Shown here: positions 1-27,133 of the stretch, in pieces | Layout: each line of letters begins with the position of its first letter | Numbering within the stretch: the stretch's first letter is position 1 | Origin: an uncultured Gammaproteobacteria bacterium | GTDB taxonomy: Bacteria; Patescibacteriota; Patescibacteriia; UBA9934 | Length of the DNA: 59,756 nt | Assembly (NCBI GenBank): GCA_964552565.1 | Contig: CAZKGL010000001.1 | Location: 567,060 to 626,815 of the forward strand | Reading direction: 5' to 3' | Made by a program: the position numbers and the translations under genes | The notes under the pieces: model-generated | Databases searched by the model: none | What the model was told of the DNA's origin: nothing | The model's input: the letters and a program-made list of their open reading frames with translations, nothing else

Positions 1-552
1 CTTGGAGAGATAGATGGTAATTTTGTCGGTATCATAGCCCACCTGCATCGGTCCCTCGAATGCGGTGCCATCGGTGATGGACATAAAAGAGGAGATGGGC
101 GGCCGCAACGGGTCGAAACTCTTTTCTGCAATGAATGAACACGCGCCACCGGCTGCCAGTACGTCCCCCTGCTCGATGTCGAAAGTTGCGCCATCGTAAT
201 CCGGGTGGCATCCGCTCGGCTTGTATCCTGGAATGTTTTTCTCTGCGCAGATAAAGAATTCGACAGTAACTTGTTCTCGGAGCAGTTTGGCCGGAACCGA
301 GAAATGCTCGATGATTTTCCTTGTCGAATAGCTTCGTCGGAAGAATGTGTTCCGGCACTGCACTTCGAGCATGAATGCCGCGGAGCCGTTCCTAATCTGT
401 TCTTCAATAGCCTCGTTTTTGAGACTGAAATGCGGGGTTAGGATAACCTCTTCTTTTGCCAGTTCGTAACGGAAGTCTACATCGAATGTCCCCGCGAGGT
501 CGTCCTCGTTTCCGAGCACTGGATGCGGGTAAGATTTTGCATTAACCTTCAT
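1..552 (-). CDS. Hypothetical protein with N-terminal YPHPVLG motif (3'-truncated by window edge)
   Basis: Manual translation from ATG at 552: MKVNAKSYPHPVLGNEDDLAGTFDVDF...; open for 184 codons to base 1; overlaps the stop of the upstream GHKL gene by 11 nt; absent from the ORF track because no stop is in the window. Confidence 0.8.
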   Translation of the reverse strand, partial: MKVNAKSYPHPVLGNEDDLAGTFDVDFRYELAKEEVILTPHFSLKNEAIEEQIRNGSAAFMLEVQCRNTFFRRSYSTRKIIEHFSVPAKLLREQVTVEFFICAEKNIPGYKPSGCHPDYDGATFDIEQGDVLAAGGACSFIAEKSFDPLRPPISSFMSITDGTAFEGPMQVGYDTDKITIYLSK

Positions 553-3137: not shown

Positions 3138-4100
3138 CTAAGACTCCAGTGCGATGCGGATGCTCTCGGCAATGCGGGCGATAACCGGGATTGTGACTGA
3201 GTTTCCCACCTGCTTATAGTGATAGCACGCCGCTTGGTTATCGGGAAAGACAAATGAATCTGGAAATCCCTGCAGGCGAGCGCACTCCCTTGGCGTCAGC
3301 TTTCTAATGCCGTTGGCATCCCGAACAATCGGTACGTTATGTCCTCCGACTCCCATGCTTGCCGTCAGCGTTGGGCATACGCCGCTCTTGTTTTCGCGTA
3401 CATAAACGCGGCGGTACTGATAGACTTTGTCCTTGCGTTTAGCGATGGCCTTTAATTTGGGGAAGATGTACTTATCTTCGGGGCCATAGTAATACTTTTC
3501 ATCGACTTTTTTCTCGAGAACGCCGTTCATTGTTTTGGTGAGCGGAATCGGCTCTGGCCACCGGAATTTAAGCATGGTCTTCGGATTGCTGAACCCGACG
3601 ATATAAACGCGTTCACGAGTCTGCGGAACATTGCCAAAGTGCATACTGTTCAGCACCTTGGCTTCAATTGTGTAGCCCGCATTATGCAGCTCTTCGCTAA
3701 CCCTTTTGAACGTTTCTCCGTGGTCGTGATTAATGAGGTGCTTTACGTTCTCCAGGAAAATCGCCCTCGGTTTTCTCGCTTTCAAGATTTCAATTACAGC
3801 AAACAGCAAATCGCCGCGCCCCTTATCGGCGAAGCCTCGTTTATGGCCGGCGATGGAAAATGGCTGACATGGGAAGCCGCCGAGCAGGATGTCAAAACGC
3901 TTGGGAACTCGTTTCATCCCTGGTTCTTTGATAACGTCAAAAAGATTAGCGACGTCGATTTCGCCGAAATTGAGCCTATAGGTTTCCGCCGCCTTTTGGT
4001 CGATGTCATTCGAATATGCAATATCAAAACCAGCGGCTTCAAAACCGATACGAACGCCCCCGACACCGGCGAATAGGTCAATAGCTCTTAAACTGTCCAT
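3138..4100 (-). CDS. C5-cytosine DNA methyltransferase
   Basis: DLFAGVGG, GFPCQPFS, FLENV, QTRERVYIVG, YKQVGNSV motifs; start reassigned to 4100. Confidence 0.97.
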   Translation of the reverse strand: MDSLRAIDLFAGVGGVRIGFEAAGFDIAYSNDIDQKAAETYRLNFGEIDVANLFDVIKEPGMKRVPKRFDILLGGFPCQPFSIAGHKRGFADKGRGDLLFAVIEILKARKPRAIFLENVKHLINHDHGETFKRVSEELHNAGYTIEAKVLNSMHFGNVPQTRERVYIVGFSNPKTMLKFRWPEPIPLTKTMNGVLEKKVDEKYYYGPEDKYIFPKLKAIAKRKDKVYQYRRVYVRENKSGVCPTLTASMGVGGHNVPIVRDANGIRKLTPRECARLQGFPDSFVFPDNQAACYHYKQVGNSVTIPVIARIAESIRIALES

Positions 4101-4502
4101 GTTTCTTTGAAAAAGTCGGGATATTACGTGGTGCAATCATACCAGTTTGAGGCCGTTTAATAAAATAAGTTGTCCGCAGTGTTTGAGCGGGTACAGAGAC
4201 TCGAGGAATGTTCGGTTTTTTTTAATGCCGGAGGGACTTAAAATGCGTTATAAATAACGCATGAGTTTGTACGGCTTGCGACTATAAGCGCAGGATATTA
4301 TACTGTCACTACAATTGAGCCTAAACCAAGCGTTTCCACGTTCGGCATGGCACTTAAACCCAACCAGGATACTGAACCCGTCGTTCAGCAATCCTGGTTG
4401 GTCGTACCCCGAAAGGGGTGCGTTGTCCCGAAAGGGGCAAAAGCTGGCGGCGGGCTTTGTGTTTGCCGACAGTCGAATAAACACCCAACCAACCAGGGTA
4501 AT

Positions 4503-15568: not shown

Positions 15569-16636
15569 TTAGTCCTCTTCCTGGTACAAACCGAGCAAGA
15601 TGAGGTCGCTGTTCGCCGGATGCACCCGGAGCGCGGCGGCCTGCCGGCTCGATGGGAGCTCCTCCGTCGTCCAGGCGCTGCCGCCTGAGGTCGAGCGGTA
15701 GAAGGTCGAGTCCGTGCCGTACATGACCGTGTTGCCGTCCGCGGGGTCGACCGCAAGCGCAAGGATGTCGACCTCGCCGCGCGCCGTGATAAGCGGGACG
15801 TCGCTCCATGTCCCGCCCTGGTCCTTGGAGACGAGGAGCCCGTATTCCGAACTCATGTAGAGCGTCTTCCCGTCCGCGGTCTGGGCGAAGTCGTAGAAGT
15901 TGTCCGACTGCCGGTACGTCTCCTTGAGCGTGTCTTCGAGCTCGGTCCAGTTTGCACCCGCGTCCGTGGAGCGGTAGATGCCGTGGCGTCGCGAACCGGC
16001 GAGGAGGATGCGGCTGTCCGTATTGCTGACCATGATCCCCGACAGTTCGTCGTTCACGCGGTAGATCGTCGCCCAGCTCTCGCCGCCGTCCGTGGAACGG
16101 ATGACGTCACCCGCGGTGGTCGTCATGTACAGCGTATTCGGGTTGTACCAGTCAATGACGAAGTCGGTGAGATCCTCGTCGGCCCGCGACTCGACGTACA
16201 TCTCCGTCATGAACGTGCGGCCGCATGTCGTCGTTTTCATGACGCGGTCTGTTTTGAGGACGTAGTACGTGCACACATCGCGCGGGTCGACTTCGATGTC
16301 GAGTATCGCGCCGCTACGCGCCAGCGCCTCTTCCGGACGCTGCCACGTGGCGCCGGCGTCATATGAGTACAGGAGGCCGTCGCCCGAGGTGCCGACGTAA
16401 TACGCCGAGTCGTCCTGCGGGTCGACTTCGATGGCGAGAATGTCGACCGCGCTGATGGAGCCGACGGAGAACTGGCCCGGGAGCGCGGCGAACTGCGTCC
16501 AGCCCGACCCGCCGTCGTCCGAGACCCACAAGCCGCCGTCGCTGACGTCGGCGCTACTGCCGCCCAAGGAAAGGCACCCGCCGCCGGCGAGCGCAAGAAG
16601 CGACAGGCTGGCAGCAAACCGTGAAGCCGATGACAT
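15569..16636 (-). CDS. BNR/Asp-box repeat lipoprotein
   Basis: GGGC lipobox; repeated SxDxGxxW motifs. Confidence 0.85.
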   Translation of the reverse strand: MSSASRFAASLSLLALAGGGCLSLGGSSADVSDGGLWVSDDGGSGWTQFAALPGQFSVGSISAVDILAIEVDPQDDSAYYVGTSGDGLLYSYDAGATWQRPEEALARSGAILDIEVDPRDVCTYYVLKTDRVMKTTTCGRTFMTEMYVESRADEDLTDFVIDWYNPNTLYMTTTAGDVIRSTDGGESWATIYRVNDELSGIMVSNTDSRILLAGSRRHGIYRSTDAGANWTELEDTLKETYRQSDNFYDFAQTADGKTLYMSSEYGLLVSKDQGGTWSDVPLITARGEVDILALAVDPADGNTVMYGTDSTFYRSTSGGSAWTTEELPSSRQAAALRVHPANSDLILLGLYQEED

Positions 16637-16653
16637 AACGAAAAGAAAAATGG

Positions 16654-17418
16654 TTATGGCAACGCAAGCGCAACTTCCTCAAGAACCAGCGTGGGATTCG
16701 CATGGTCTCGAAGAGCACGCGGCGCTTCGGCAAGAAGCGCCAATGCGTTGGCGTGCGCACGCACGCGTTCGGGAGTCATTGTACCGCATTCCTGCAAAAC
16801 CGTCGTGTGGAGCGCCGCGGCGAGGTGGGCAACAAACTCCTGCACGCGCTCCATGCCCGCAGCCTCGTCGCCTTTCGTGAGCGCCAAAGCCTGGAGCAGC
16901 CGGTCGGTCTTCCCCGCGCGCACGAACGCGTCCACCGCCTGGGCGACGTCCGCGTCGCGCGACGCACGCCGCGGCACGGCGACCTCGACGACGCGCGAAC
17001 GGATCGTCGCGAGCATACGGTCGGGATACTCGGTACACAAGAAGAGCGCGGTGTCGCCTTTCGGTTCTTCGAGCGTCTTCAGGAGCGCGTTTTGGCCATG
17101 GGCGTTCAGCGCGTCCGCGTCCTCAACGATGCCGACCTTCTTGCCAGGTCCGAACGCAGAACGCGCGAGACGGGCGCCAAACTCCACCGCATCCTCGACC
17201 GGGATCTGCGCTTTCTTTTCCCCGGTCTTTTTCTCGGCAGGGCGCGCGAGGATCGCAATATTGTGGTGCCGGGCGATGTCTGCCGCGGGTACGGCAAGAA
17301 GCGCGCCCACGATGTCGGCGACCACGTCGCGCGCGTCGTCCGGCCTCCCCGCAAGCAAAAACGCATGGGCGCGGCCCTGGGAAAGCAGGCGGAGCACGGT
17401 GTCGCGAGGCGTCGGCAT
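16654..17418 (-). CDS. holB: DNA polymerase III delta-prime-like subunit
   Basis: HAFLLAG, NALLKTLEEP, TIRSR; start reassigned to 17418. Confidence 0.85.
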   Translation of the reverse strand: MPTPRDTVLRLLSQGRAHAFLLAGRPDDARDVVADIVGALLAVPAADIARHHNIAILARPAEKKTGEKKAQIPVEDAVEFGARLARSAFGPGKKVGIVEDADALNAHGQNALLKTLEEPKGDTALFLCTEYPDRMLATIRSRVVEVAVPRRASRDADVAQAVDAFVRAGKTDRLLQALALTKGDEAAGMERVQEFVAHLAAALHTTVLQECGTMTPERVRAHANALALLAEAPRALRDHANPTLVLEEVALALP

Positions 17419-17488
17419 AGTGCGGAAAAGTATAGCACACCGACGGGCGAAAAATGCCGGAAAAACATGCAAAATATCGCGTTTTCCA

Positions 17489-17517
17489 TTGACAAAACTC
17501 ATTTTTTCTGCTATCCT
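17489..17517 (+). promoter_or_regulatory. Sigma70 promoter with extended -10
   Basis: TTGACA-17 nt-TATCCT, TG upstream of the -10. Confidence 0.75.
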
Positions 17518-17674
17518 ACCCCGTTCGTGGAAACCCTTGGAGGAGGGTCTTCTCATGGAGTTCGGGCATCCTGCACGAACTGCACCGGGAGATCCCTCCC
17601 AACGGAAGCATGCCGGTCCCGCAAGGGCACGGCAGGCACGGTACTCGTGCGCATTCGCGCCAAGGAGACACACC

Positions 17675-18748
17675 ATGACCACCGAAACCGCCGGCACCGC
17701 CGGCACCGACGAGACCATCGACCCCGGCGCCCTCGCGGAGCCGACCGTCGCGTGGATCAAGCTCGAGATGCCGGAGGGCTTCGCCCGCGGCGTCGTCGCG
17801 AAGCGCATCGGGGACCTCAAGGGCAAGGCGCTCACCTGCCGCATGGCGGTGACGGAGCTCCTGGCCCACGCCGACAACCGCACGCTCCTCACGATCCTCC
17901 ACGAGATGACCCTCGGAAAGCGGGGCGCCAAGGACAAGGGCCTCGCGACCTTCGCGCGCTGCGTCGAGAACGAGGTCGCGTGGCGGGCGGAGGACGTCGA
18001 CGCCTGGGACGCGCTCAAGGGGCTCGCGGACATCATCAAGGTCCCGATCCTCGCGGTGAAGGACTCCGGTGAGCTCGAGAAGCCGGTCGAGGCGTTCAAG
18101 CGCATCGCGGACGCGCTCGCCAAGGATCCGACTTTCGGATCCCAGGCCGAGTCCGTCGTCGCGAAGGCGAAGGCCCGCAAGGCCCACGCCATCGTCTGGA
18201 TGCCCGAAGTCAGCATCACCGACGAGGTCGACTACCACCAGCGCCGTACCCGAGCGCGCCTCATCCTCGGCGCCCCCTTCGGCAAGCTGACGCCGTGCCA
18301 GAAGTCGGCGCGGCAGATCCTCGAGGCGATCGTGGAGGCGTCGGGCCGCAAGCCCCGCCGCATCCTCCTCGCCGCCCGCCGGCTCAGCCGCAAGGCGAAC
18401 ACCGGCGACCAGGAGGGGCTGCTCCGCGTCCTCGACGTGGTCTTCGAGCAGGAGGCGGCGCACAGCAAGAGCGCCGACATCCGCACGAAGCACGGCGTGC
18501 TGCTCGACGTCGCCCGGAAGCTCTCCACCAAGGAGAAGCCGGTCCACCCGCAGCAGTTCGTCGGCGACGAGTACGAGCCCCTCGAGTCCGCAGCCAAGCG
18601 TCTCGTGATCCTCGCCGGTCTCCACCGCAACGAGATCATCAAGAACGCGAAGTCCGCGATCGAGGCCCAGCTCCTCGCGGCGAAGCTCAGCGAGGCGCCG
18701 AAGGAGGAGGACGAGGAGGAGTCCGACAGCGCGAGCACCGGTTCCTGA
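17675..18748 (+). CDS. Orphan helical K/R/A-rich protein (357 aa) with acidic tail
   Basis: AGGAG RBS, very high GC3, no recognisable motif. Confidence 0.8.
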   Translation: MTTETAGTAGTDETIDPGALAEPTVAWIKLEMPEGFARGVVAKRIGDLKGKALTCRMAVTELLAHADNRTLLTILHEMTLGKRGAKDKGLATFARCVENEVAWRAEDVDAWDALKGLADIIKVPILAVKDSGELEKPVEAFKRIADALAKDPTFGSQAESVVAKAKARKAHAIVWMPEVSITDEVDYHQRRTRARLILGAPFGKLTPCQKSARQILEAIVEASGRKPRRILLAARRLSRKANTGDQEGLLRVLDVVFEQEAAHSKSADIRTKHGVLLDVARKLSTKEKPVHPQQFVGDEYEPLESAAKRLVILAGLHRNEIIKNAKSAIEAQLLAAKLSEAPKEEDEEESDSASTGS

Positions 18749-18789
18749 CACCGGTTCGGAAAAGTCAGCGTGCGGGGTAGAGCGAACGG

Positions 18790-19160
18790 CTCCCCCAAGC
18801 GTGCTGCACGATCGTGTGATCGTGCAGCGTCGCCCAAAACCCATGAAGCGATTCGTGGAGTTCGGGCGACAACGGTCGCACCCACCAATGTGGAGGAGAG
18901 AGATGATGCGGCGGACCTATGAGAGTAGGTCCATCGCATCGGTCCCAGAGTGCACGACTAGGCTCCGGCTTACTCGTCGCACATCTTCGGGGCCACGGCG
19001 CACATCGTCCTCGGACCGATCACTGCACCCCTCGCTTCCACATTTGTGGGTATTCCGCTTGTTCTCGGGCAAAAAACGTGCTAGACCATTGTCGGGAGAA
19101 GCGTTCGTTTCCCCCAACACGGTGCGCGCGAGATTTACTCGCGCGTCACTGGCCCGCCAA
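18790..19160 (+). ncRNA. Candidate multi-domain structured RNA
   Basis: 11-bp perfect stem, GCGA and GAGA tetraloops, 16/17 long-range helix (18880-18896 with 19035-19051); strand and ends uncertain. Confidence 0.5.
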
Positions 19161-19185
19161 CAATCCACGCAGGGGTTCCTCACCC

Positions 19186-19506
19186 ATGTTCCTTCACGAT
19201 GCCACCGTCCAGCATCTCATCACCCACCCCGAGGCCATCGAGGCGCGCTGCACCCGCGGCGACGACCCCGAGCACGAGCGCCACATGAAGGCGCTCGCCG
19301 CCCTCGACTTCCTCGCGCACGCGAAGGAAGCCGGCGAGACGGAGATCCTCGACATCGAGGACGCCGAGGAGGAACCCGAGGTCGAGTTCGCGCTCAGCAA
19401 CGCGCTCATCGCGATCATCGAGCAGCCCCTCACGGTCCCGATCTACGTCGCGTCCGACGAGGACCGCGCCCGCATCGCGCGGGAGCTGGCCGACCTGCTC
19501 GGGTGA
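19186..19506 (+). CDS. Orphan acidic protein (106 aa)
   Basis: High-GC3 ORF after the structured region. Confidence 0.7.
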   Translation: MFLHDATVQHLITHPEAIEARCTRGDDPEHERHMKALAALDFLAHAKEAGETEILDIEDAEEEPEVEFALSNALIAIIEQPLTVPIYVASDEDRARIARELADLLG

Positions 19507-19596
19507 TCCGTTGGGGAGGACGCGCCTCCCCGCTACGGCCGGAAGCTCTCCGTGCCGTCAGCCCAGTACCGATGACTCCGTCATCAGTAGCGGGCT

Positions 19597-19627
19597 CACA
19601 AAAACTCCCTCACCGGGAGTTTTTGTG
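19597..19627. terminator. Bidirectional terminator
   Basis: CACAAAAACTCCC-TCACC-GGGAGTTTTTGTG between convergent genes. Confidence 0.75.
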
Positions 19628-20131
19628 TTCGGTGATATCGCGCCCAACGATGATGCGAACGAATCGTTCCGCGCGGTGCAGTCGGATAAGTTTCGTGAGG
19701 ATGGCGCCGACGTCCCGATTCGTTCGCCAGACGCTTTTTTGGATTCGTTCACCATTCATCGCGTGAAGAAATCGTGAAAGCGCACGTCGTGCAACGCGCC
19801 GATCTTCTGGGATATCAAAGATGACGAACACCCAACGACCGACAGGAAGGATTTTCGTGCAACGAGCAGCTTCCCGCACGATCGCATGATGCCGGCCAAG
19901 AAGTGTAATCCCCACTCGGATCAAATCTCCTCGACCGGTGAAGCGGATGAAGCCCTGTTGTTGCAATGACCGTAATGCGCGTCGCCTTCGATGACGCTCT
20001 TTCTCTTCGACCCTTCTCTGCTTTCGACTGACACGACCCATGACGGCGCTAAAATCCGGTCGCTCGAATGCGCCATCGAGAAAGGCAAGAATTTCGTCAA
20101 AGACTTTTTCCGTCGTTGATTTTGCTCTCAT
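19610..20131 (-). CDS. PaaX-like regulator with Cas2-like (VapD-type) C-terminal domain
   Basis: wHTH-like N-terminus; VIFDIPE..IQKSVW motif; no array or cas genes nearby. Confidence 0.75.
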   Translation of the reverse strand: MRAKSTTEKVFDEILAFLDGAFERPDFSAVMGRVSRKQRRVEEKERHRRRRALRSLQQQGFIRFTGRGDLIRVGITLLGRHHAIVREAARCTKILPVGRWVFVIFDIPEDRRVARRALSRFLHAMNGERIQKSVWRTNRDVGAILTKLIRLHRAERFVRIIVGRDITEHKNSR

Positions 20132-20200
20132 ACCAAACGGACACTTATCGTCCGATCGGACAATAAGTGTCCAAAGTGATTATGACGTACGAGATGCTCG

Positions 20201-20974
20201 CTACAGGGCTTTCGGATCTGTCCCGTACTGCTCCGCCGCTTTCCAGGCGAGTTCGAGCGTGGCGCGGCATGCAGAGGCGATGGAGGGCGACGTGATTTCG
20301 ATGGCGATAAACCCGTTTGCGTACGAAAACAGGAGGACGCGGTCGCCGCAGACCGCCATCTCGCCGTGGACCGCGAAGAAGCTGGTCGGGACGACGCGCA
20401 CCGCGAGCCCTGGGATCTCCGGCGGCGTGATGTCCTTGTCGGTCACGAGGATAGAGCGCAGCGGCGTCGTGCGGTCCTTCAGCACACCGTGGTGGTCGCG
20501 CGTCAGCCGCCGGTCGCTGATCGCGCAAAACGTGTCGTAGCCGACGAGCTGGATGGTGTCCTCGTCCCACGCCTCGAACTCGCGCTGCATGTTCCGCAAC
20601 CCGTCGATGCCTTCAATATAGCGGATGCGCGGTTTCCCCGTTTTCGTCGTATGCGCCGCAGCGAGCTGCGGCAAAATGCGCTCGGCATGCAGTTCGCGCA
20701 GCTCGACTTCGCGGCGCTGAAGCCGGAGCACGTTTAAGAGGCGCTCCGGCGGCTCAGCGGTGAACCGCCGCTCCCCGTCCTCGATGTATGCGGTCACGAG
20801 CCCCATCTGCCCGAGTGCGTCGAGCGTGTCGTGCGTCGTCGGCCGCGACATTTGCGTTGTTTCGGCGATCGCGGGCGCGGTTGCGACGCCAAGCCGGAGC
20901 ATGGCGACGTACACGGCAGATTCGCGTTCGGTAAATCCGAGGTGCACCAAGTCCCGCGTCAGGTCGTCGTACAT
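20201..20974 (-). CDS. TrmB-family transcriptional regulator
   Basis: LGFTERESAVY HTH; YIEGIDG; C-terminal effector domain. Confidence 0.88.
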   Translation of the reverse strand: MYDDLTRDLVHLGFTERESAVYVAMLRLGVATAPAIAETTQMSRPTTHDTLDALGQMGLVTAYIEDGERRFTAEPPERLLNVLRLQRREVELRELHAERILPQLAAAHTTKTGKPRIRYIEGIDGLRNMQREFEAWDEDTIQLVGYDTFCAISDRRLTRDHHGVLKDRTTPLRSILVTDKDITPPEIPGLAVRVVPTSFFAVHGEMAVCGDRVLLFSYANGFIAIEITSPSIASACRATLELAWKAAEQYGTDPKAL

Positions 20975-26083: not shown

Positions 26084-27133
26084 CTACTTGCCGACGTACC
26101 CGCGCAGCACGTTGCCCGGTTCGATGCGCATCGCCTGGGTCGCGGCGCGTTTCCGCAGCATTGCGGGAACCATGAACGGGGCGCGGATGAGCACCTTGCG
26201 CGTTTCCGGCTCAAAAAGCAAGCCATAAAGCACTCGCCCGGTTTCGTGGAACGCCATCCACGGCGCGGCAAGGAGCGCATCGACGAATGTAAGGTTTTTG
26301 AGGAGCACGAACAACTGGTTGCGCGTCCCGAGTGCGGCAAAGAACGGCCGTTGCCGCGTGCGGTTCGTCAGGCGTTGCCAGAGCGTCTGGCGCTCCGCCC
26401 CATACATGCCCCGGTAGTGCCACAGCTTTGCCTGCGGCACGAACGCGGTGCGATACCCGGCCGCCCGTGCGCGCCAGGCAAGGTCGCAGTCCTCGCGATA
26501 GGCAAAAAAGTCGCCATCGAACAACTCGCCGTCGATAAGGAGGTCGCGGACGGCGCGAGCGCGGAACATCGCACAGGCCCCGCTCGGGCCGAAGACATCG
26601 CGCATGGCGTCGAACTGGCCGGTGTCGATGTCGCCCGCACCGCGCTCCACCATGCGCCAGCCGCGAGTGACGCGAAGGCCGGTGGAGTCGAGGATATCCG
26701 AGCGGACGGTTTCTTCCAGCGACTCATCGCCGACGTGCTCGCCAAACGCGCGGTAAATTTTCGGCTGGACGATGGAGACGCTCGGGTCGGTGTCGAGCGC
26801 GGCGACCAACGTCCCAACCATCTTCGGGTCAAGGATCATGTCCGCGTTCATGACAAGGATCGCCCAGTCGTCGAGCTCGGACTCCGGAAGATGCTCCAAG
26901 GTAAACCGCACGAGCTGGTTATGGCCAGGCGCAAATCCGAGGTTGCGGACGTTGCGGCCGACGAGCGCATGCGGGACATGCTGCTGCAGGTAGTTAACCG
27001 TTTCCCCATCCGTACTGCCGTTATCAAGGATGCGCACGACGGTGTCCTTGTACTCTTGCGCATCGAGCGACGCCAACAATTCCGGCAAATACCGGCGGTC
27101 GTTCCAGGCCAAGATGTGGATGGCGACGCGCAT
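26084..27133 (-). CDS. GT2 glycosyltransferase
   Basis: DNGSTD, NLGFAPGHN, FAYREDCDL. Confidence 0.93.
   Translation of the reverse strand: MRVAIHILAWNDRRYLPELLASLDAQEYKDTVVRILDNGSTDGETVNYLQQHVPHALVGRNVRNLGFAPGHNQLVRFTLEHLPESELDDWAILVMNADMILDPKMVGTLVAALDTDPSVSIVQPKIYRAFGEHVGDESLEETVRSDILDSTGLRVTRGWRMVERGAGDIDTGQFDAMRDVFGPSGACAMFRARAVRDLLIDGELFDGDFFAYREDCDLAWRARAAGYRTAFVPQAKLWHYRGMYGAERQTLWQRLTNRTRQRPFFAALGTRNQLFVLLKNLTFVDALLAAPWMAFHETGRVLYGLLFEPETRKVLIRAPFMVPAMLRKRAATQAMRIEPGNVLRGYVGK

Follow-up and report, generated by a model that had tools for sequence, protein, structure and literature searches.

The unit transcribed away from holB in the genome of an uncultured bacterium of the Patescibacteriota (GTDB lineage UBA9934, deposited as an uncultured Gammaproteobacteria bacterium) raises a simple question: which of its parts is conserved, the proteins that it encodes or the long RNA that lies between them? 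We analyzed a stretch of 59,756 nucleotides (nt) from this genome (GenBank assembly GCA_964552565.1, contig CAZKGL010000001.1, forward-strand positions 567,060 to 626,815), which we call the window and whose coordinates are used throughout. An annotation made from the sequence alone (the first-pass annotation) had described a unit with its own promoter, structured leader, open reading frame (ORF) of 357 amino acids (aa), large RNA, acidic ORF of 106 aa, and terminator. We located all of these parts (Table 1) and refer to the two reading frames as ORF-A and ORF-B. The region between them is a genuine structured noncoding RNA, and it is not in Rfam. Comparison with related loci, designated here by numbers with the prefix L, indicates that the conserved heart of the unit is this RNA and that both proteins are clade-specific additions.

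The core of the RNA folds as a four-way junction in which helix H5 (18881-18900 with 19031-19050) closes three hairpins. H6 (18905-18940) is capped by a GNRA loop (GAGA or GUAA), H7 (18941-18994) by a UNCG loop (UCCG, UACG, or UUCG), and H8 (18997-19029) by a YNMG loop (CUCG or UUCG). There are 33 invariant positions in the core, including the tract GGAGGAGAGAG at 18891-18901 and much of the tip of H7 with its invariant G.U wobble and C.C mismatch. Across the intergenic gap, column identity averaged 79% and unbroken invariant stretches reached 20 nt, while ORF-A proteins were 39 to 60% identical.

Covariation carries the case for this fold. With four sequences only, RNAalifold already reported 22 compensatory pairs. 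In a plain MAFFT alignment of 10 sequences (A6), 94.3% of cells were paired, compared with 33 to 43% when the partners were slid, and changes on both sides were found in 40 of 93 pairs, compared with 9 to 14 in the slid controls; the observed values were reached by none of 500 shuffles. An alignment of 14 sequences (A11) gave the same picture, with 93.9% of cells paired and compensatory changes in 45 of 67 pairs (11 to 20 in slid controls; 0 of 500 shuffles), counts that are somewhat inflated by the fitting of the A11 core to the model. Folded as a single sequence, the window's RNA reached -173 kcal/mol, compared with -120 kcal/mol for shuffles (z = -11.6). The covariance model R1 found one copy in the window, scoring 184.5 bits on the + strand (E = 3e-42) and 31.6 bits on the - strand, and the strand asymmetry of the model was 175 to 194 bits versus 22 to 32 bits. 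One further element, an outer closing helix pairing the A-rich loop 3 with the U-rich tail after H5, was rejected on finding shuffles to be equally good.

The region does contain features that could be taken for coding sequence. A frame of 195 aa is open from 18919 into ORF-B, and GGAGG resembling a Shine-Dalgarno (SD) sequence stands with an AUG at 18891-18905. We rejected a coding function: substitutions lack codon (3-nt) periodicity, indels of 1 and 4 nt, which are not multiples of three, break the frames, and in most members stop codons occur within the core in all three frames. A comparison of positions 18700-19200 (501 nt) with Rfam 15 by cmscan returned no family at E ≤ 10, a wider cmscan of 16500-20500 returned nothing relevant at E ≤ 1, and a literature search found no description of a holB-divergent four-way-junction RNA. 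The features by which we propose to recognize the family are all present in the window, namely, a 174-nt core matching R1, the tract GGAGGAGAGAG, and the H7 tip GACU.GGCU.CGGCU.ACU.

Table 1. Features of the unit, in window coordinates
Feature	Position	Strand	Basis or remark
Promoter, sigma-70, TTGACA-17-(TG)cTATCCT, T-rich spacer	17489-17517	+	10/12 consensus positions plus TG
5' leader of ORF-A, clade-specific	17518-17674	+	Fold vs shuffles, z = -3.9
ORF-A, 357 aa	17675-18748	+	Open frame with AAGGAG at 17662-17667
Hairpin or H-type pseudoknot around ORF-A stop codon	18737-18768	+	Alignment A8
Structured noncoding stretch, ~440 nt	18749-19185	+	
Variable 5' domain of RNA	18775-18870	+	H2 18775-18796, H3 18804-18827, H4 18829-18870
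RNA core, four-way junction, 174 nt	18879-19052	+	Covariation, 14 sequences (A11)
Spacer from core to ORF-B, with hairpin 19124-19146 and weak SD before ATG	19053-19185	+	
ORF-B, acidic, 106 aa, isoelectric point (pI) 4.4	19186-19506	+	
Bidirectional intrinsic-terminator hairpin CACAAAAACUCCC-UCACC-GGGAGUUUUUGUG	19597-19627	.	13-nt arms 19597-19609 and 19615-19627, 100% complementary

The RNA occupies the same place in every locus found, divergent from holB and behind the same extended -10 promoter. On contigs of relatives that carry ORF-A, holB is followed by the divergent ORF-A, a gap of ~340 to 460 nt, and a small ORF. Four loci (L023 to L026) were added by scanning a genome collection with an invariant word, and more distant genomes were fetched via the neighboring BNR protein gene. 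Outside the set from which it was built, R1 matched L027 (115.6 bits), L030 (93.2 bits), and L031 (62.8 and 42.4 bits); at the corresponding site of L029, a GW2011-type Uhrbacteria contig, there was no R1 match. A first genome scan and two viral scans found nothing, and a metagenome scan with the invariant 19-mer gave 14 matches, all of them unrelated look-alikes consisting of an SD sequence and ATG. The promoter, TTGAC(A/T)..ATTTT(C/T)TGCTATnnT, was present in 11 of 11 loci examined, including one with the RNA only (L025), and also in L027 and L030; in the window it is the sole such site within 2.5 kb.

Three loci separate the RNA from its neighbors. In L025, L027, and L030, the promoter is followed by the RNA and a strong intrinsic terminator, with no ORF-A, no ORF-B, and no ORF of any kind on that strand. 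Since the RNA stands alone there between promoter and terminator, it is an autonomous RNA gene, independent of both ORFs. In L030 the core starts ~16 nt past the predicted transcription start, and therefore even the 5' domain is dispensable. Of the 14 RNA-bearing loci, 13 carry one copy of the RNA. The exception, L031, has two diverged core copies, at 328-503 (-) and 3607-3796 (-), with three orphan ORFs between them (141, 385, and 217 aa); the 385-aa ORF was considered as an ORF-A homolog and rejected (hhalign probability, 0.1). Beyond the RNA terminator of L027, an ORF of 121 aa lies on the other strand (3435-3800, +) and looks by eye like the four-helix-bundle "23S rRNA intervening sequence protein" type. 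L025 (CAYMYA010000009.1) and L026 (CAYHFQ010000011.1) come from metagenome-assembled genomes labeled uncultured Gammaproteobacteria. Their synteny is of the Patescibacteria type (RRF, BNR, holB, and RNA, with TrmB next in L025 and an ORF-A homolog in L026), which suggests that the genomes were misbinned or misnamed.

The core was compared with the genes around it for its rate of change. Its nucleotide identity to the window copy was 87% in L001, 81% in L022 to L026, and 73% in L025. At the protein level, the corresponding values were 88%, 70%, and 61% for RRF and 62%, 51%, and 34% for holB; ORF-A was 54% identical in L001, undetectable by tblastn in L022 to L026, and absent from L025. Core conservation thus exceeds that of holB and ORF-A in every comparison and that of RRF in the more distant ones. 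That the family represents an uncatalogued, complex-folded noncoding RNA gene of Uhrbacteria-like Patescibacteria is strongly supported.

The flanks of the locus are constant too: RRF, BNR, and holB lie to one side, and to the other lie TrmB, a glycosyltransferase, and MreB. The same synteny is found throughout, and therefore the locus is vertically inherited. The first-pass annotation had regarded the unit as inserted, a view that does not fit a site lying between holB and TrmB in all relatives.

We think it probable that the product of this autonomous gene is a stable, complex-folded noncoding RNA, which most likely acts in trans with its fold serving as a binding scaffold. The RNA would be transcribed away from holB by the strong, highly conserved extended -10 promoter and would act through its fold in trans, binding a protein or the ribosome or polymerase. 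In the window's clade, ORF-A sits between promoter and RNA and the variable ORF-B after it. Given that position of ORF-A, the RNA would be made within the ORF-A mRNA, at its 3' end, with the ORF-A stop codon contained in a covarying hairpin or pseudoknot that may mark the 5' boundary of the RNA. We infer that the RNA is highly expressed, that it acts in trans, and that it is released or matured from the ORF-A transcript. Several points weigh against this reading. A look through RNA sequencing runs turned up none with the window's sequence, and the metatranscriptomes belonging to a relative's samples and studies were empty. ORF-A, where present, always adjoins the RNA, and a dedicated ribonucleoprotein is possible in that clade. 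Same-strand genes follow the RNA in 9 of the 13 RNA-bearing loci that were fully read, and a cis role in expressing downstream genes is possible. The fitting of the A11 core to its model, mentioned above, also belongs here.

ORF-A, by sequence comparison, is a real, fast-evolving orphan protein gene. Its frame has been retained through many indels, and differences from L001 at the three codon positions were 0.31/0.23/0.38. Three relatives were found in 5.8 billion clustered proteins, and a profile search of 1.84 billion representatives added three more distant ones; the family comprises five representative clusters among these 1.84 billion proteins and four proteins at 90% clustering. ORF-A had no match in Pfam, PHROG, NCBIfam, PADLOC, PDB sequences, or phage genomes, and none of 10 homologs contained a Pfam or NCBIfam domain. 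With these 10 homologs, AlphaFold2 returned a confident all-alpha model (pLDDT, 85.7; pTM, 0.84), whereas an earlier model from four sequences had been unusable (pLDDT, 39). Foldseek found no analog of the model in the PDB (best E, 0.48; TM ≤ 0.2) or in BFVD (best E, 0.46), and the fold is predicted to be a novel all-alpha one. The protein had been described as basic. In fact it is nearly neutral (pI 7.7; K+R 55 versus D+E 54; net charge, +1), with an acidic, low-complexity C-terminal tail.

The end of the ORF-A coding sequence is itself part of an RNA structure. Stem S1 pairs ACCGGU at 18737-18742 with ACCGGU at 18750-18755 (81% paired, one compensatory pair). Stem S2 pairs CUGAC at 18745-18749, which contains the stop codon UGA (18746-18748), with GUCAG at 18764-18768, leaving an A-rich loop 3; it was 94% paired, with compensatory changes in three of its five pairs. 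Slid controls for the two stems were 17 to 34% paired, and S1 is less well supported than S2. In one example, a change of the stop codon from UGA to UAG is offset by a change of GUCAG to GCUAG. The helix is also retained in L024, although its stop codon has shifted into the 3' strand of S2. Conservation of the final ORF-A codons extends to their nucleotides. We infer that the pseudoknot may serve to mark or shield the RNA's 5' end or else may couple translation termination to RNA folding.

These observations bear on the strongest rival explanation, in which ORF-A is the specific partner of the RNA, binds its core or the stop-codon pseudoknot, stabilizes or matures it, and is coexpressed with it on one transcript. 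We regard such a dedicated ribonucleoprotein as possible but not as the likelier state of affairs, and we likewise lean against binding of the RNA by ORF-A as such. Homologs of ORF-A are confined to the holB locus and lie solely directly upstream of the RNA (10 of 10 ORF-A loci); homologs apart from the RNA, a check that the first-pass annotation had proposed, were not found. The ORF-A stop codon belongs to a covarying RNA helix, the few invariant residues of the protein are mostly arginines (R56, R143, R190, R193, and R309), and the model is well folded, helical, and without enzymatic signature. Yet the RNA is equally conserved without ORF-A in L025, L027, and L030, ORF-A has evolved far faster than the RNA, and the protein is not basic overall. 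Adjacency alone is also weak evidence, because the synteny of the whole region is conserved.

A more specific form of partnership had been proposed from a 12-mer, TGGAGTTCGGGC, that the leader (17556-17567) and the RNA (18856-18867) share. The 12-mer was said to form the 3' arm of a bulged stem in both places, and the protein was thought to bind the repeated stem. Both copies are present, and the copy in the RNA is indeed a 3' arm (of H4), but the leader copy is the 5' arm of its hairpin. The match is ordinary when the whole unit is considered, exact direct repeats of at least 12 nt occurring in 113 of 300 dinucleotide shuffles, and a 13-mer repeat also exists within ORF-A. It is uncommon (8 of 2000 shuffles with a shared word of at least 12 nt) only when the leader is set against the intergenic region, a choice made post hoc. 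The leader copy is conserved in no relative, including L001, L003, L004, L019, and L021. L022 and L024 lack the RNA copy, their H4 being a different, shorter hairpin, and L030 lacks the whole 5' domain in which that copy resides; the core is nearly unchanged in these three loci. The shared 12-mer thus has no conserved role, and with copies that are not conserved and that form opposite stem arms, and with an RNA that persists without ORF-A, the idea of a protein binding the repeated stem is not supported.

The leader fared better, folding more stably than shuffles (Table 1). It contains a long hairpin (~17542-17599), the predicted GNRA hairpin CCC-GCAA-GGG (17618-17627), and the SD sequence of ORF-A. 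Both hairpins are kept in the window's own clade with some compensatory changes; in an alifold analysis of six clade members, such changes affected 13 of 28 pairs of the leader. In L022, L023, and L026, the leader is only ~75 to 95 nt long and of other sequence. The 5' domain of the RNA is similarly variable. Compensatory changes were found in five of seven pairs of H3 and in 8 of 14 pairs of H4, and the domain has been reshaped in L022 and L024. An alternative hairpin, GCGAC/GUCGC, can form at 18866-18879, and across 18829-18879 the segments GUCGCCC, GGGCGAC, and GUCGC give two mutually exclusive hairpins (the base of H4 versus a short downstream hairpin whose extension varies in length among loci). 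These paired alternatives could be a switch.

A bolder reading, which we consider unlikely, takes the core as a new functional RNA class of Patescibacteria that works either as a ribozyme or by docking, as a regulator, on RNA polymerase or the ribosome by means of the SD-like GGAGGAGAGAG and the G.U/C.C hairpin tip. The window's clade would then have gained ORF-A as a dedicated partner with a novel fold, and the stop-codon pseudoknot would couple ORF-A termination to RNA folding or to protection of the 5' end. If this were true, one transcript would yield both an mRNA and a stable RNA.

Downstream of the core, conservation is narrower. Only the window, L001, L003, and L021 have the spacer in conserved form; L004 and L022 to L026 have a much shorter one, and in L025, L027, and L030 a terminator takes its place. 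ORF-B is acidic, as had been predicted, and a database search returned the window's own protein only. It is 31 to 34% identical to ORFs in L001 and L003, and L021 has an acidic ORF that is similar by eye. Elsewhere the slot holds an unrelated ORF (L004), membrane-anchored proteins (L022 to L026), or nothing (L025, L027, and L030). ORF-B is the occupant of a variable slot and is not conserved across the RNA family.

The contents of this slot invite the explanation that the RNA is a cis-acting platform, a riboswitch-like leader or sensor that controls read-through into variable cargo, here ORF-B. Unrelated same-strand genes do follow the RNA in most loci, the 3' strand of H5 can, as read by eye, alternatively pair with a downstream ACCCAC/ACCCAG in L004 and L022 to L026, and a weak terminator-like site lies past the core at 19046-19058. 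We nevertheless judge this explanation improbable. In L025, L027, and L030, a strong intrinsic terminator closes the RNA and no same-strand gene lies downstream, which led us to reject a simple riboswitch or cis leader. No downstream expression platform comes near the core in sequence conservation, and because the cargo genes share no relationship, there is no candidate ligand and no link to a gene function.

We hold it very improbable that the RNA is a housekeeping RNA of this lineage, that is, a highly divergent RNase P RNA, signal recognition particle (SRP) RNA, or 6S RNA missed by the Rfam models. The strong conserved promoter, the one copy per locus except in L031, and a core conservation above that of holB and ORF-A in all comparisons and of RRF in distant ones would suit such an RNA. 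In addition, CACGACUAGGCUCCGGCUUAC is superficially like what we take, from the sequence of Escherichia coli M1 RNA, to be the CR-V region of RNase P, and a P4 helix was suggested by the segments GGAGUUCGGGC and CUCCGGCUUAC, which are similar to CR-I and CR-V. That helix is contradicted by covariation and by the UNCG loop: the CR-V-like segment is a local capped hairpin and not one side of a long-range P4, and a C-to-A substitution in L004, which would break the proposed P4, falls in the UNCG tetraloop (UCCG/UACG/UUCG) of this covarying hairpin. Neither RNaseP_bact_a nor RNaseP_bact_b gave a covariance-model match, in keeping with the lack of any Rfam match at E ≤ 10. The consensus, three capped hairpins around a four-way junction, resembles neither SRP helix 8 nor the rod of 6S RNA, and ARAGORN found no transfer-messenger RNA, with its tRNA-like domain and tag frame, in the window.

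Other proposals can be dismissed briefly: a toxin/antitoxin-like module, as the first-pass annotation suggested, finds no PADLOC, Pfam, PHROG, or NCBIfam match for its proteins, no tandem repeat of the type III kind in 18749-19185, and no conserved ORF-B, and an RNA-guided nuclease with its guide (TnpB/IscB omega RNA or IS110 bridge RNA) was rejected for want of RuvC/HNH or DEDD domains in 10 ORF-A homologs, an all-alpha ORF-A model without PDB analog, and a locus that is syntenic and not mobile.

In the window, the neighbors of the unit are holB (PF13177), a PaaX/Cas2-like gene, and the TrmB regulator. The PaaX-like gene (19610-20131, -) has a Cas2-like central domain (PF20803, PF09827). It is convergent with the unit and shares the terminator, which was found by an inverted-repeat search and was not listed by a simple terminator scanner. 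The gene is probably a recent arrival beside the unit, because it was missing from all five relatives in which the locus reaches TrmB (L001, L003, L021, L027, and L030). Between the ORF-B stop and the terminator (19507-19596) lie further hairpins, including GGGGAGG-N5-CCUCCCC at ~19514-19532. Elsewhere in the window, an Rfam gathering scan detected a single family, LOOT RNA (RF03000), at 4318-4439 (+), with 81.4 bits against a gathering score of 46.4. ARAGORN called an 83-nt tRNA-Ala(GGC) at 26425-26507 (-), where the Rfam scan lists none; the call may represent an unusual tRNA, an intron-bearing tRNA, or a false call.

The Patescibacteria that keep this RNA beside holB are ultra-small bacteria of groundwater. 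Patescibacteria have tiny genomes with scant noncoding DNA, and this lineage nonetheless retains an RNA fold of ~175 nt at a fixed site. Complex-folded, widely conserved bacterial RNAs without an assigned function are few; OLE, raiA, ROOL, and GOLLD were cases, and such RNAs have repeatedly opened new biochemistry. It is strongly supported that the RNA described here is a previously uncatalogued family and that in the window it is flanked by two clade-specific genes, one of them encoding a protein whose predicted fold is novel. The window adds to such cases an orphan protein with a confident, unmatched predicted fold that is found solely beside the RNA, and a covarying helix around its stop codon. 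The calibrated model R1 and the 14 sequences permit a survey of the family.

Among known systems, ToxIN likewise combines a protein gene and a noncoding RNA in one short operon. Its gene order is the reverse, and the window's unit differs in having no tandem antitoxin repeats, no ToxN/AbiE-type or other PADLOC match, and an RNA that persists without the protein. Small RNAs derived from 3' untranslated regions and dual-output mRNAs, e.g., CpxQ and SroC, are comparable in layout: in the window's clade, too, the RNA directly follows a coding sequence in one transcript, from which it would need release or within which it would act. In contrast to these, the window's RNA probably predates the coding sequence and is better conserved, stands free in sister lineages, and at the window's locus is preceded by a stop codon enclosed in a covarying helix. 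The genes ssrS, rnpB, and ffs share with the RNA gene a strong promoter and terminator of its own and a fixed chromosomal site, and the RNA resembles their products in being single-copy in nearly all loci and conserved in sequence about as much as RRF or more. It differs from them in giving no covariance-model match and in having no RNase P P4, 6S central bubble, or SRP domain IV. A further comparison is OLE RNA with its adjacent partner gene oapA, known from work of the Breaker laboratory. The two RNAs have no similarity of sequence or structure (there is no Rfam OLE match), the window's RNA is much smaller and is retained where the protein is absent, and ORF-A is predicted to be a soluble all-alpha protein and not a membrane protein. 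What they have in common is the kind of gene: in both, a complex-folded, highly conserved RNA with an obscure biochemical role is restricted to one lineage and lies beside a protein gene specific to that lineage.

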